Part shown: piece after piece, positions 1-63,999 of the stretch
How positions within the stretch are numbered: the stretch's first letter is position 1
Layout: each line of letters begins with the position of its first letter
Assembly: GCF_988243305.1 (NCBI RefSeq)
Contig: NZ_OZ547136.1
Length of the DNA: 64,000 nt
Reading direction: 5' to 3' (one strand)
Position numbers and translations under genes: made by a program
The notes under the pieces: generated by a model
What the model saw: the letters and a program-made list of their open reading frames with translations, nothing else
The model's database searches: none
Told to the model about the DNA's origin: nothing

Positions 1-10
1 ATTTTTTCAT
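1..10 (-). CDS. cpsG: Probable 5' end of phosphomannomutase gene (cpsG/manB), truncated by the window edge
   Basis: Reverse complement of nt 1-10 is ATGAAAAAAT (M-K-K...), matching the MKK start of ManB, which follows cpsB in the colanic-acid operon. Only 10 nt are visible. Confidence 0.25.
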
Positions 11-100
11 GTCGTTACCCTTTTTCAGGCAATAGTTGGCCCTGACCGAAGCGGCCAATTTTGTTTTTGTCGTTATTTACACCGCGGTTTCGCATTCATT

Positions 101-290
<190 letters not shown>

Positions 291-1736
291 TTACACCCGT
301 CCGTAGCGATCCGCGAAGCGCACCACATCATCCTCTTCGAGATAAGAGCCGGAGCGCACTTCAATTAAATCGAGCGGAATTTTCCCCGGGTTTTCCAGGC
401 AATGCGTCGCCCCCAGCGGAATATAAATGGACTCGTTTTCACCAAGCAGTTTGATATCACCGTCGATAGTGACTTTTGCCGTTCCCGCGACCACCACCCA
501 GTGTTCCGCGCGGTGATGGTGCATCTGTACCGACAAGCCCTCGCCCGGTTTCACGGTGATGCGTTTCACCTGGTAGCGGTCGCCCGCGTCGATAGAGTCA
601 TATTTGCCCCACGGACGATACACTTCGCGATGCACCCGATGCTCATGGCGACCATCGGCTTTGATCTGCTCGACCACTTTTTTCACATCCTGCACCGCGT
701 TACGGTCGGCAATCAGCACCGCATCTTTGGTCTGCACCACTACCAGATCTTTCACCCCGACGGTGGTGACCAGGCCAGATTCGGCGTACACATAGCTGTT
801 TTCAGTTTTGTGATTAATCACATCACCGTGGCAAACGTTGCCCTCGGCGGTGTGGGCGCTGATCTCCCATAATGAAGACCAGGAACCGACATCGCTCCAG
901 CCCGCATCCATCGGCACCACAACGGCATCTGCCGTACGTTCCATGACCGCGTAATCCACCGACTCTTCCGGGCAGGCCAGAAACGCTTCTTCATCCACGC
1001 GAATAAAATCGAGATCCGGATCGACGGCGCTCATCGCTTGTTCACAGGCGTCGAGAATATCCGGGCGATATTTTTTCAGTTCTTCGAGATAGCGTCCGGC
1101 GCGGAACAGGAACATGCCGCTGTTCCAGTAATATTCGCCGCTTGCCACATAGGCCTGGGCGGTTTCCAGATTCGGTTTTTCGACAAACTGCGCCACTTCA
1201 AAGGCCACCGTATCCTGCTCACCCGCAGATACTTCACCGCGACGAATATAGCCATATCCGGTTTCAGGTAGATCCGGCACAATGCCGAAGGTCACCAGCT
1301 TGCCCGCTTCGGCATATGGCATGGCATTACGCACGGCGGTGCGAAAAGCGTCTTCATCGGCAATCACATGATCCGCCGCCAGCACCAGCATTAACGGGTC
1401 GCTCTCCGGGCTATGACGTTTTGCCGCCAGCGCCGCCAGCGCCGCCAGCGCAATGGCAGGTGCAGTGTTACGCCCTGCCGGTTCGAGAATAATGTTCTCG
1501 GTGAGTTTGTTCAGTTGGCGCAGCTGTTCCGCGACAATAAAGCGGTGCTGCTCATTGCAAATCACCACCGGGCTTTCGCACTCTACGCCTTTCAGGCGGC
1601 AGATGGTGGTTTGCAGCATGGTGAGATCGCCTTTCAGGCATAAAAACTGCTTGGGGTAAAGTACGCGGGAAAGCGGCCATAAGCGGCTACCGGAGCCACC
1701 TGCCATCACAACTGGATAGAGTTTCGACTGCGCCAT
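291..1736 (-). CDS. cpsB: Mannose-1-phosphate guanylyltransferase (GDP-mannose pyrophosphorylase), colanic acid pathway
   Basis: 481-aa ORF beginning [24 protein letters not shown] (nucleotidyltransferase G-rich motif) with a C-terminal cupin-type mannose-6-phosphate isomerase-like region. Position upstream of the cpsG start fits the cps operon. Confidence 0.9.
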
Positions 1737-1738
1737 AA

Positions 1739-2962
1739 TTATCCCCGAATATCATTTATAAATTGACGTAACACGTTCTCTTTATCGAGCGTGCGTTCGG
1801 CATATTCACGTGCCACCGTGTTGTGTTTGGGCAGCAGAAGCGCCTGACGGATCCCCGCCACCAGCGCCTCGACCGATTCCGGTTCTACGCAAACCGCAAT
1901 TCCCGGAAAGGTTTCGCAAAGCTGCCCCAGTTCTGTGTGGGCTTCCGCGGTAATCACCGCGTTACCGCCTACCGCCAGAATATTGGTCAGTTTCGACGGC
2001 AATACGGCATCTGCCGCGCCGCGTTTTTGCACCACCAGATGGCAATCGCCCATCTTCAGCAGTGCGGGTAAAGCGTCATACGATTGCAGCGGGAAAAATT
2101 GCATGTTGCGCAGTCCACGCTGCTGCGCCATTTTTTCCAGCCGCGCTTTGCCGCCGCCCTGCCCGACAATGGCAAAAATCAGCGGTTCATCGCGCAGGAG
2201 ATCGGCAGCTTCAATAACGTTTTCCAGCCCCTGCTTTTCACCAATATTGCCGGAGTAAAGAATGATTTTTTTGTTATCCGGCAGGCCAAGCTGGTTACGA
2301 AGAGCGTCAACATCGGCATCTGCAACATGCTGAAAACGGGCAATTTCCGACCAGTTGGGGAAGAAGATGACGTTTTCCGCCGCCACGCCTTTTTCGATGG
2401 CTTTATTCATCATCGAACGCGAAATCGTGGAGACGTTATCGACGTTATGCAGTCCGCTACGTTCGAACGCCGTTGCCAGCTGTGCCACTTTGCCGCCTTT
2501 GCCTTTTCCGGCAAGGCCCAGCCCCAGCATGGCGTCCACTTCGTAATCCTGAATATGCAGCACGGTACGCGCACCAGAGAGTTTCGCCAGCAGGCGCATT
2601 CCCGGCGTGCAAAACAGCGTTGGCACCACGCCAATAATGCGATCCGGCTTCCAGCGACGTTGCGCCATCAACGGGAAAAAACTGCTGACGGCAAAACTGC
2701 CGAGATGTAACAGGCGTTTCAGGGTGCTCGGCTGTTTTGGCACGTACAGCGGGCAGCGCCACACCGTAGCGGCCCCCTCTTCTCGTTTGTATCGCCAGGC
2801 GGAATAGTTCTCGCCCACCTGCCACTGCGGGTAGTAAGGTGGTGCGGTAATGACCCGCACCTCATGACCTTGTGCCGCCAGCCATTCCACCATCTCGCCG
2901 GTGTATTTGCCGATGCCGGTTAACTCCGGCGAGTAGTTAATGCCGTAGACCAGTATTTTCAT
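1739..2962 (-). CDS. wcaI: Colanic acid biosynthesis glycosyltransferase WcaI (GT4 family)
   Basis: 407-aa [27 protein letters not shown]...; operon position between gmm and cpsB. Confidence 0.9.
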
Positions 2963-14637: not shown

Positions 14638-14649
14638 CACGCTACCGCC
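14638..14649 (-). promoter_or_regulatory. ops element (GGCGGTAGCGTG) within a JUMPStart sequence in the wza leader; RfaH-dependent antitermination site
   Basis: Plus strand 14638-14649 reads cacgctaccgcc, whose reverse complement is GGCGGTAGCGTG, the 12-nt ops consensus. It lies about 180 nt upstream of the wza start on the coding strand. Confidence 0.75.
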
Positions 14650-15117
14650 CCTGGCTTTTTAGCTACCAATACACTGATTTAGCTTAATTTTTAAAACCCT
14701 CTCAACATACAGTCGTTGATGAGAAAGGGTTATTGCGGAAATTAACTTCCGAATATAAGGTGACATTATGGTAATTGAATATTGGCTCTCCAATAATGCA
14801 GGAGGAAGTGTTACAGCTAACGGAATAGCAGGCAAGGTAACAATTCGGCAATTGGCTATTTTTAAGAATTATATTAAGTGTCATTCAACATGGTTTTTAG
14901 GAGTTTCTTTAGGTTGACAATATTTAATATAGTGTCTCCACATGCGATATTTCTTAAATAATGTTTTATTATTACCACTTTTAATTCAGGGATAATGTGA
15001 GGTTATAAACCTCAAATAATATGAGATAAATAGTGCTGCAACATTGCATTTTTGCCCCGATTTATCCATGATCGAATTGTGACATTTGTCATACAACGAA
15101 TAGGTTTTGTACTTACT

Positions 15118-30301: not shown

Positions 30302-30480
30302 AAGAAATCCTTTCTTAGAGAATTATTGAGGTCCGGTATCATACCGATTGCAATAATGAAATAAGAGCAAACGAAGAAACTTTCAGAATTAGGCCCGGCG
30401 GCGCAGAAAATTTTGCTATTCGCCTCGCAAGAACGGAGAGCCGTCGATTGACACTAAGGGCGGAGTGACATAATTTCAGG

Positions 30481-30628
30481 AGTGAGGGTTAGGGAGAGGT
30501 TTCTCCCTCCCCCTGGTGTTCTTAGTAAGCCTGGAAGCTAATCACTAAGAGTATCTCCAGTATGATGACGTGCTTCATCATAACCCTTTCCTTATTAAAA
30601 GCCCTCTTCTCCGGGAGAGGGTTTCCCG
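30481..30628 (+). ncRNA. sibA: Sib-family antisense sRNA (antitoxin), copy 1; boundaries approximate
   Basis: Plus-strand region fully antisense to the ibs ORF, preceded by a CATAAT -10-like hexamer (30469-30474) and ending at a GC-rich hairpin plus T-rich tract (gccctcttctccgggagagggtttcccgttt, ~30601-30628). Confidence 0.5.
30522..30581 (-). CDS. ibsA: Ibs-family type I toxin peptide, copy 1 (19 aa: MMKHVIILEILLVISFQAY)
   Basis: Minus-strand ATGATGAAG...TAA ORF read by hand; matches the Ibs hydrophobic peptide pattern MMK-h(15)-AY. Confidence 0.6.
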   Translation of the reverse strand: MMKHVIILEILLVISFQAY

Positions 30629-30815
30629 TTTCAGCGTCCCGCTGAAATCGTCGGCTTACCTCCTTTCGCCCTGAATGCAGTCTATCGCTAACGCGTGAAC
30701 AAAATAGTTTCCTCTGTGATTATTGCGTAACGACTCGCAAAGAATATTTGCTGGCAGGATCGCAGACTGAAAAGCCTGCAGATTGACAATCTTATCGTGA
30801 AGGCATAATTTCAGG

Positions 30816-30958
30816 AGTGAGGGTAGAGCGGGGTTTCCCCCGCCCTGGTAGTCTTAGTAAGCCGGGAAGCTTATGACTAAGAGCACCACGATGATGATCC
30901 ACTTCATCATGACCCTTTCCTTATTTAAGGCCCCTTCCTCGGGAGGGGCTTTCCCGTT
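30816..30958 (+). ncRNA. Sib-family antisense sRNA, copy 2; boundaries approximate
   Basis: Same arrangement as copy 1: CATAAT at 30804-30809, hairpin ggccccttcctcgggaggggcttt followed by a T-rich tract ending ~30958. Confidence 0.5.
30854..30910 (-). CDS. Ibs-family type I toxin peptide, copy 2 (18 aa: MMKWIIIVVLLVISFPAY)
   Basis: Minus-strand ORF read by hand inside repeat unit 2. Confidence 0.6.
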   Translation of the reverse strand: MMKWIIIVVLLVISFPAY

Positions 30959-31143
30959 TCAGCGTCCCGCTGAAATCGTCGGCTTACCTCCTTTCGCCCT
31001 GAATGCAGTCTATCGCTAACGCGTGAACAAAATAGTTTCCTCTGTGATTATTGCGTAACGACTCGCAAAGAATATTTGCTGGCAGGATCGCAGACTGCAA
31101 AGCCTGCAGATTGACAATCTTATCGTGAAGGCATAATTTCAGG

Positions 31144-31284
31144 AGTGAGGGTAGAGCGGGGTTTCCCCCGCCCTGGTAGTCTTAGTATGCTGGGTAGCTA
31201 ATCACTAAGAGCACCACGATGATGAGTAGCTTCATCATGACCCTTTCCTTATTTATGGCCCCTTCCTCGGGAGGGGCTTTCCCG
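31144..31284 (+). ncRNA. sibB: Sib-family antisense sRNA, copy 3; boundaries approximate
   Basis: Same arrangement: CATAAT at 31132-31137, hairpin and T-tract ending ~31284. Confidence 0.5.
31182..31238 (-). CDS. ibsB: Ibs-family type I toxin peptide, copy 3 (18 aa: MMKLLIIVVLLVISYPAY)
   Basis: Minus-strand ORF read by hand inside repeat unit 3; closest to IbsB as I recall it. Confidence 0.6.
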   Translation of the reverse strand: MMKLLIIVVLLVISYPAY

Positions 31285-31445
31285 TTTCAGCGTCCCGCTG
31301 AAATCATCGGCTTACCTCCTTTCGCCATGCACGTAGTCTATCGCTAACGCGTAGATAAAATAGTTTCATGTATTATTACTGGATGCGTGCTCGCAAATGT
31401 GCCCGCCATTCAGACGATTCCCGATAGTGTTTCATAATTCCTCCA

Positions 31446-44520: not shown

Positions 44521-44604
44521 TTAATTTCGATTATTTTTCCCGGATGGAAAATTCTTAGAAACCGATCACATACAGCTGCATTTATTAAGGTTATCATCCG
44601 TTTC

Positions 44605-44691
44605 GCTGAAAAACATAACCCATAAAATGCTAGCTGTACCAGGAACCACCTCCTTAGCCTGTGTAATCTCCCTTACACGGGCTTATTTTTT
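44605..44691 (+). ncRNA. cyaR: CyaR (RyeE) Hfq-dependent, CRP-activated sRNA
   Basis: GCTGAAAAACATAACCCATAAAATGCTAGCTGTACCAGGAACCACCTCCTTAGCCTGTGTAATCTCCCTTACACGGGCTTATTTTTT read on the plus strand matches my recollection of E. coli CyaR, including the terminator hairpin and U-tract. Confidence 0.8.
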
Positions 44692-60831: not shown

Positions 60832-60975
60832 AGTTTGCTCCTGCCATAACGTGAAGAAGCAATGACCTGGTGGTCCGTGACTTCCCTACGCTGGCATTAT
60901 CCAGATCAGGTGATACGGGTATTTCTCAGCCTTCACGCAGAAGGGCACCCCGAGTCGTTTGATTGCGATGATAAA
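60832..60975 (-). promoter_or_regulatory. TPP (thi-box) riboswitch in the thiM 5' leader
   Basis: Reverse complement of ~60878-60955 reads GACTCGGGGTGCCCTTCTGCGTGAAGGCTGAGAAATACCCGTATCACCTGATCTGGATAATGCCAGCGTAGGGAAGTC, containing the conserved CTGAGA and thi-box core and lying directly upstream of thiM. Confidence 0.9.
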
Positions 60976-62670: not shown

Positions 62671-63999
62671 TAAGGAGATCCCCTCATAATTTCCCCAAAG
62701 CGTAACCATGTGTGAATAAATTTTGAGCTAGTAGGGTTGCAGCCACGAGTAAGTCTTCCCTTGTTATTGTGTAGCCAGAATGCCGCAAAACTTCCATGCC
62801 TAAGCGAACTGTTGAGAGTACGTTTCGATTTCTGACTGTGTTAGCCTGGAAGTGCTTGTCCCAACCTTGTTTCTGAGCATGAACGCCCGCAAGCCAACAT
62901 GTTAGTTGAAGCATCAGGGCGATTAGCAGCATGATATCAAAACGCTCTGAGCTGCTCGTTCGGCTATGGCGTAGGCCTAGTCCGTAGGCAGGACTTTTCA
63001 AGTCTCGGAAGGTTTCTTCAATCTGCATTCGCTTCGAATAGATATTAACAAGTTGTTTGGGTGTTCGAATTTCAACAGGTAAGTTAGTTGCTAGAACCCA
63101 TGGCTCCTTTGCCGACGCTGAGTAGATTTTAGGTGACGGGTGGTGACAATGAGTCCGTGTCGAGCGCTGATTTTTTCGGCCTTTAGAGCGAGATTTATAC
63201 AATAGAATTTGGCATGAGATTGGATTGCTTTTAGTCAGCCTCTTATAGCCTAAAGTCTTTGAGTGACTAGATGACATATCATGTAAGTTGCTGATAGGTT
63301 TCCAGTTTTCCGCTCCTAGGTCTGCATATTGTACTTTTCCTCTTACTCGACTTAACCAGTACCAACCCAGCTTCTCAACGGATTTATACCATGGCACTTT
63401 AAAGCCAGCATCACTGACAATGAGCGGTGTGGTGTTACTCGGTAGAATGCTCGCAAGGTCGGCTAGAAATTGGTCATGAGCTTTCTTTGAACATTGCTCT
63501 GAAAGCGGGAACGCTTTCTCATAAAGAGTAACAGAACGACCGTGTAGTGCGACTGAAGCTCGCAATACCATAAGTCGTTTTTGCTCACGAATATCAGACC
63601 AGTCAACAAGTACAATGGGCATCGTATTGCCCGAACAGATAAAGCTAGCATGCCAACGGTATACAGCGAGTCGCTCTTTGTGGAGGTGACGATTACCTAA
63701 CAATCGGTCGATTCGTTTGATGTTATGTTTTGTTCTCGCTTTGGTTGGCAGGTTACGGCCAAGTTCGGTAAGAGTGAGAGTTTTACAGTCAAGTAATGCG
63801 TGGCAAGCCAACGTTAAGCTGTTGAGTCGTTTTAAGTGTAATTCGGGGCAGAATTGGTAAAGAGAGTCGTGTAAAATATCGAGTTCGCACATCTTGTTGT
63901 CTGATTATTGATTTTTGGCGAAACCATTTGATCATATGACAAGATGTGTATCTACCTTAACTTAATGATTTTTACCAAAATCATTAGGGGATTCATCAG
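62671..63999 (-). mobile_element. IS10 insertion sequence (IS4 family), about 1329 bp
   Basis: Right terminus at 63999 matches the IS10 outside end (reverse complement CTGATGAATCCCCTAATGATTTTGGTAAAAATCATTAAG). Left end contains GAGATCCCCTCATAATTTCCCCAAAGCGTAACC, the IS10 inside end. Left junction is placed to within a few nt. Confidence 0.88.
62684..63892 (-). CDS. IS10 transposase
   Basis: 402-aa ORF MCELDILHDSLYQFCPELHLKRLNSLTLACHALLDCKTLTLTELGRNLPTKARTKHNIKRIDRLLGNRHLHKERLAVYRWH..., full length and apparently intact. Confidence 0.93.
   Translation of the reverse strand: MCELDILHDSLYQFCPELHLKRLNSLTLACHALLDCKTLTLTELGRNLPTKARTKHNIKRIDRLLGNRHLHKERLAVYRWHASFICSGNTMPIVLVDWSDIREQKRLMVLRASVALHGRSVTLYEKAFPLSEQCSKKAHDQFLADLASILPSNTTPLIVSDAGFKVPWYKSVEKLGWYWLSRVRGKVQYADLGAENWKPISNLHDMSSSHSKTLGYKRLTKSNPISCQILLYKSRSKGRKNQRSTRTHCHHPSPKIYSASAKEPWVLATNLPVEIRTPKQLVNIYSKRMQIEETFRDLKSPAYGLGLRHSRTSSSERFDIMLLIALMLQLTCWLAGVHAQKQGWDKHFQANTVRNRNVLSTVRLGMEVLRHSGYTITREDLLVAATLLAQNLFTHGYALGKL

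Follow-up and report, generated by a model that had tools for sequence, protein, structure and literature searches.

The 64,000-nucleotide stretch of DNA analysed here (referred to as the window) carries near its beginning a minus-strand gene for a protein of 481 aa, which is identified from its sequence as CpsB/ManC, the mannose-1-phosphate guanylyltransferase of the colanic-acid cluster (Table 1). Residues 1-481 align to positions 1-478 of the 478 positions of the NCBIfam equivalog profile NF012004 with 1107.4 bits (cut-off 859), and TIGR01479 (GMP_PMI) is matched with 806.7 bits (cut-off 372.95). The protein has the domain order NTP_transferase, ManC beta-helix and C-terminal mannose-6-P isomerase/cupin, with Pfam matches to PF00483 (residues 8-297), PF22640 (304-357), PF01050 (362-476) and PF07883 (393-460). 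Because wcaI, the gene of a colanic-acid fucosyltransferase, lies immediately upstream in the operon, the gene is the colanic-acid cpsB and not an O-antigen manC. The order of the ORFs in the window and the RefSeq annotation of matching loci give an intact cluster with the operon order gmd-fcl-gmm-wcaI-cpsB-cpsG, and the Pfam families of the neighbours in one matching locus (L016) agree with the colanic-acid operon, including cpsG downstream. A preliminary description of this DNA had spoken of a capsule biosynthesis enzyme; colanic acid, however, is not a classical capsule but an exopolysaccharide that is secreted (M antigen).

The spacer between cpsB and cpsG contains a REP/BIME-type tandem repeat, and REP-type repeats expand it to ~280 bp in the window and in strain MS1679, compared with 104 bp in K-12 (L001 438-541). 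Further along the window, three tandem SIB_RNA/ibs type I toxin-antitoxin units are found just upstream of mdtA. K-12 has two units at this locus, sibA and sibB, and a genome search showed that the three-unit form is common (e.g. in O157:H7, with the full span of 1151 bp) and that two-unit (~823 bp) and four-unit (~1411 bp) forms occur too, so that the SIB array is a copy-number polymorphism on a larger scale in the same window as the array in cpsB. The mdtB-mdtC segment reaches a best identity of 98.4% over 6.2 kb among 5,426 complete E. coli genomes, as against 99.7% for cpsB (with MS1679), which suggests that the segment is divergent or recombinant, or else that the lineage is under-sampled. 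The low identity of mdtABC also raised the question whether the window is E. coli at all; this doubt was dismissed in view of the match of cpsB to MS1679 and of an E. coli assembly that contains the exact CpsB protein and 4.7 kb of the DNA. The right-hand end of the window has a DDE transposase ORF overlapped by an RNA-OUT match, which identifies, at the level of sequence, an IS10-like element. Rfam matches to a JUMPstart element, the CyaR sRNA and a TPP riboswitch lie where they would be expected (Table 1).

Table 1. Positions of the features of the window that are referred to in the text.
Feature	Position	Strand	Basis or remark
cpsB-cpsG spacer	1-290		
algC RNA motif	15-64	-	ahead of cpsG
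REP/BIME-type tandem repeat	101-289		88 bp x2.1, 99% matches; in cpsB-cpsG spacer
naRNA4	151-221		Rfam match in cpsB-cpsG spacer
cpsB/manC CDS, 481 aa	291-1736	-	ORF, NCBIfam, Pfam, RefSeq annotation of matching loci
Antisense ORF, 116 aa	1142-1492	+	across the repeat
Isolated fourth gccgccagc copy	1375-1383		40 bp from the array
Region coding predicted α-helix residues 94-108	1413-1457	-	AF2 models; holds the whole repeat
Perfect 9-bp tandem array, 3.2 copies	1423-1451	-	direct reading, Tandem Repeats Finder; unit GCCGCCAGC (plus strand)
wcaI CDS	1739-2962	-	ORF; neighbours in matching loci (annotation, Pfam families)
JUMPstart element	14638-14676	-	Rfam; upstream of wza
SIB_RNA/ibs array	30448-31367	+	TRF period 328 x2.7
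SIB_RNA unit	30448-30596	+	Rfam RF00113
SIB_RNA unit	30783-30925	+	Rfam RF00113
SIB_RNA unit	31111-31253	+	Rfam RF00113
mdtA	31397		
mdtB-mdtC segment	32764-38964		
CyaR sRNA	44603-44688	+	Rfam
TPP riboswitch	60866-60962	-	Rfam
IS10-like element	62684-63954		
DDE transposase ORF, 402 aa	62684-63892	-	PF01609
RNA-OUT antisense RNA match	63885-63954	+	99.5 bits; overlaps transposase ORF

On the plus strand, gccgccagc is read within cpsB at 1423-1431, 1432-1440 and 1441-1449 and is followed by gc, so that the triple tandem that had been described for 1423-1449 is present as claimed; Tandem Repeats Finder returns the same perfect tract of 29 nt with period 9, 100% matches and no indels. On the coding strand, three copies of GCGCTGGCG followed by GC encode residues 96-105 of CpsB. 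The peptide had been given as LAA three times, which is correct for the residues but differs in phase, the in-frame unit being GCG-CTG-GCG, i.e. Ala-Leu-Ala, which is repeated three times and followed by GCA. No other perfect tandem repeat in the 64-kb window (periods 4-30) reaches three copies, and when the bases of the window were shuffled 300 times, the longest period-9 run was 12 bases and thus never as long as 20. With the peptide and the local codon usage as given, two further ALA units would both be written as GCG-CTG-GCG by chance with a probability of ~0.014, and duplication is therefore favoured over coincidence. An isolated fourth copy of gccgccagc encodes the LAA of the peptide LVLAADH and could in principle support a larger misalignment (48-bp deletion or duplication). 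The antisense ORF across the repeat, with the peptide PPAPPAPPA, was set aside, as it follows mechanically from the GC-rich repeat.

The cpsB gene of K-12 (MC1061) is 1437 bp long and encodes 478 aa (WP_000079274.1), which is the length that the preliminary description had given. In a pairwise alignment, the gene of the window differs from it by 36 substitutions (97.5% DNA identity) and a single indel of 9 bp at gene positions 286-294, corresponding to exactly one repeat unit. K-12 has GCGCTGGCG twice, within the peptide IALAALAAK, and the window has it three times and thus one Ala-Leu-Ala more; five amino-acid substitutions between the two proteins lie outside the array. The single extra 9-bp unit that had been proposed relative to K-12 is thereby confirmed, since the alignment gap falls exactly in the array. 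Two observations had been named as speaking against this reading, namely reference alleles that have three units themselves, or a length difference located elsewhere; both were looked for, and neither was found, the E. coli alleles having two units in ~99.6% of cases.

This frequency derives from searches of the complete E. coli genomes, 4,663 of which (of 5,426) were matched by a 401-bp query around the array. In a spread sample of these matches, the full-length ones, with a single exception, span 392 bp and so fall 9 bp short of the query. Two units were assigned to ~4,640 genomes from the identity bands of a long-flank four-unit probe with 60-nt flanks, and three units to 12 genomes with a 39-nt probe that is unable to seed on two-unit alleles. 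A single unit was found in five genomes by five ungapped matches of a long-flank one-unit probe, all of them intact ORFs of 475 aa; a short one-unit probe of 35 nt matched just two genomes, an under-count caused by SNPs in the flanks. The four-unit allele is absent from the complete E. coli genomes: with the four-unit probe the best matches were the twelve three-unit alleles, all of them with a gap of 9 bp, and no match covered the query over its whole length. Alleles other than the two-unit form thus make up less than 0.4% of the genomes, and translation of the alleles that were retrieved gave intact ORFs throughout, of 475, 478 and 481 aa for one, two and three units, respectively.

Ten of the twelve three-unit genomes (L003-L012) share an identical cpsB (WP_000079306.1) and form a clone from nine countries, with genomes of human, poultry, wastewater and river origin. 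The remaining two, VREC0761 (L002) and L013, encode different proteins (RefSeq WP_236323814.1 and WP_101360998.1). The exact 481-aa protein of the window is on record as HHS8764768.1 (E. coli, assembly GCA_052135155.1), and it is encoded by a third contig as well. The window is 100% identical to a contig of GCA_052135155.1 over 4,736 bp and to the Logan assembly of run ERR15423954 over 4,477 bp, although these two may derive from the same isolate and are then independent only in part. The three-unit allele is accordingly already present in public databases, where it is annotated as ordinary cpsB without comment, and a full-text literature search found no paper describing an indel in the cpsB repeat.

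Within the protein family, the length of this segment hardly varies. In a full-length alignment of 115 Enterobacterales CpsB/ManC proteins (cluster representatives, 79-98% identity), all other sequences have the two-unit length after NTAPAI, mostly as ALAALAA, which marks the helix peptide repeat as ancient and length-constrained at the sequence level. Homologues of 480-481 aa from Salmonella, Cronobacter, Siccibacter and Buttiauxella do not owe their length to an extra unit, as their added residues are located elsewhere in the alignment. AlphaFold2 (AF2) models of both alleles were built from the same 60-sequence alignment and have a modest mean pLDDT of 61-62, but the nucleotidyltransferase domain can be used, with block means of 64-92; the modelled domain superposes on that of H. 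pylori (PDB 2qh5) with a TM of 0.86, an rmsd of 2.7 Å and a Foldseek probability of 1.0. The repeat-bearing helix of the window protein is predicted to follow the conserved GRNTAPA motif (88-94) and to precede a loop (109-114) and the strand LMLVLA (115-120). In the two-unit model of K-12 the helix comprises residues 92-105, the loop 106-111 and the strand 112-117, so that between the two models the helix end and the following strand are shifted by exactly three residues. According to the models, the insert would be absorbed by lengthening the helix C-terminally by nearly one turn, with the length of the loop unchanged. The pLDDT of residues 91-100 falls from 86 with two units to 64 with three, but this was given little weight, because the window protein is the only one with the insert in the alignment and the fall is thus expected.

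More distant enzymes, the GDP-mannose pyrophosphorylase of Thermotoga maritima (PDB 2x5s/2x65) and H. pylori 2qh5, share the nucleotidyltransferase fold and the NTAPA motif (E-values of 4e-60 and 6e-55), but they do not have the C-terminal isomerase/cupin domain, and their segment from NTAPA to the next strand is 7-8 residues shorter, indicating that the helix-to-strand segment tolerates changes of length over long evolutionary distances. The invariant motifs are conserved in the 481-aa allele. Together with the intact ORF and the persistence of the three-unit form in a globally spread clone, this is indirect evidence that GDP-mannose pyrophosphorylase activity is retained, and the longer CpsB is most likely functional.

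The three-unit array occurs on four cpsB backgrounds (including that of the window), which are 23-50 substitutions per 1.4 kb apart; from the window itself, the other three alleles differ by 23-42 substitutions across the gene. For each background, one unit was deleted in silico and the search repeated, yielding the nearest two-unit gene. The ten-genome clone then has no difference over 1437 bp from the gene of at least 25 two-unit genomes, L013 is two substitutions away from strain 2020N21-246, and the window is five substitutions away from strain MS1679, with which its cpsB is 99.7% identical. All five lie at gene positions 1104-1419 and more than 780 bp from the array, and the first 1,100 bp, including the array, are identical except for the extra unit. 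VREC0761 has no close two-unit relative in the collection (best 98.2%). The one-unit alleles are in turn distributed over three backgrounds, one of which equals K-12 at every site within 200 bp of the array that varies among the aligned alleles. Except for VREC0761, each allele with other than two units is closer to a two-unit allele than to the alleles of its own copy number, indicating several independent gains and losses of a unit. By this comparison of genes, the other three-unit alleles appear to be parallel events and not one shared allele, with the exception of VREC0761, for which a close relative is lacking.

Taken together, the array is very probably a one-unit (2 to 3) in-frame expansion that is recurrent but rare, with replication slippage as its most likely origin and with an enzyme that has most likely kept its function. 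The common allele contains a perfect repeat tract of 20 nt that would serve as the substrate for misalignment; judging from codon counts, it results from the use of the preferred E. coli codons GCG and CTG for the conserved helix peptide ALAALAA. During replication, the nascent strand may misalign on the tract, so that one whole 9-bp unit would be gained or lost. A gain would add Ala-Leu-Ala to the helix after the NTAPA nucleotide-binding motif and leave the frame and every other residue unchanged. Through misalignment at short direct repeats, units are reportedly gained and lost independently of RecA (work of S. Lovett). The pattern of alleles is the one expected of a slippage polymorphism: the units are perfect and arranged head to tail, the indel is one whole unit, the alleles differ by integer numbers of units in both directions, and they have arisen recurrently on unrelated haplotypes with near-identical two-unit parents. 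The slippage-type in-frame indel polymorphism that had been put forward is thus supported by alleles of one, two or three whole units on independent backgrounds, the mechanism itself being deduced from this pattern.

The most serious competitor, although an unlikely one, is that the three-unit array arose once or rarely and that the lineage of the window obtained it from another three-unit E. coli, through homologous recombination or gene conversion. The cpsB locus adjoins the O-antigen region, which is a hotspot of recombination, and the gene is a mosaic, with the five differences between the window and MS1679 clustered in the last 340 bp. Moreover, the window, VREC0761 and L013 have identical flanks from ~50 bp upstream to ~40 bp downstream of the array and do not differ at any site between gene columns 237/218 and 353, so that a short conversion tract (about 115-135 bp or less) could, on sequence grounds, have carried the array among these three. 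However, the imported patch would have to be that short, the window is identical to a two-unit allele over the first 1100 bp apart from the unit, and losses of a unit recur as well, on three backgrounds. The clone L003-L012 differs in its flanks from the other three-unit alleles at columns 278, 334 and 341 and has a perfect two-unit parent, and at least two independent gains are therefore needed in any case. Far less probable still is that the third unit stems from an error in sequencing or assembling the window genome: a tract of 29 nt is far shorter than any read, the identical three-unit array is found in 12 complete genomes from many laboratories, and the window agrees without a mismatch over 4.7 kb and 4.5 kb with the assemblies GCA_052135155.1 and ERR15423954 (possibly of the same isolate).

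The remaining two proposals assign a function to the copy number. It is very improbable that the length of the helix next to NTAPA tunes the activity or stability of the GDP-mannose pyrophosphorylase, and hence the output of colanic acid, and that it is selected in particular clones. The insert does lie in the helix that begins at the conserved nucleotide-binding motif, the local AF2 confidence changes with it, and one three-unit clone has spread globally; yet such spread can be hitch-hiking, a lower confidence is what the composition of the alignment predicts, alleles with other than two units are confined to less than 0.4% of the genomes and to recent tips, 0-5 substitutions from their two-unit parents, and in the 115-sequence alignment no lineage outside E. 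coli is fixed for a different length. If tuning did apply, for which the chances are equally slim, gain or loss of one unit would alter the supply of colanic acid or GDP-fucose, and the three-unit form would have been selected both in the clone that has spread globally and in the lineage of the window. The perfect tandem repeat inside a surface-polysaccharide gene would suit a contingency (phase-variation) locus by which cpsB is turned on and off, but this reading can be dismissed almost entirely, because a 9-bp unit never shifts the frame and the variability is very low: the fetched ORFs of all three lengths are intact, 99.6% of the genomes have one length, the ten members of the clone all have three units and identical genes, and two or three units are far fewer than in known contingency tracts.

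With slippage as the preferred origin, we infer that the variants are near-neutral to mildly deleterious, arising repeatedly and seldom persisting, because alleles with other than two units are rare and placed at recent tips, and because the length is invariant in other genera. The invariance of the two-unit form in the 115-sequence alignment and in 99.6% of E. coli, together with the fall in AF2 confidence, may mean that they are mildly deleterious and not neutral. On the other hand, the occurrence of the three-unit clone in nine countries and several sources indicates that the allele is not obviously unfit and is compatible with success in nature. Capsule biology, typing and pathogenicity are not evidently affected. 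A length of 475, 478 or 481 aa is no ground for marking a CpsB as wrongly annotated or assembled, and the cpsB alleles provide a natural series of one, two and three units for the tolerance of helix length in sugar nucleotidyltransferases. The locus also exemplifies how a conserved helix peptide can, through the use of preferred codons, give rise to a short direct repeat in the DNA that slips repeatedly in steps of whole codon triplets.

Compared with CpsB/ManC of K-12, which represents the common two-unit allele, the gene of the window has the same identity, position between wcaI and cpsG, domain architecture, repeat unit and repeat site, and differs in having three units where K-12 has two. 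With the other three-unit cpsB alleles in RefSeq it shares an identical 29-nt array and the identical length of 481 aa. The array resembles the VNTR/SSR indels that slipped-strand mispairing generates in bacterial coding regions, in its perfect head-to-tail units, in differences of whole units at one site, in the occurrence of both gains and losses and in the recurrence on unrelated backgrounds. The gene is an ordinary cpsB with an ordinary kind of polymorphism, which is rare and recurrent and probably harmless. Unlike classical VNTR and contingency loci, the cpsB array has a range of one to three copies, with one allele in 99.6% of the genomes, is not hypermutable and would be of no use as a typing marker.
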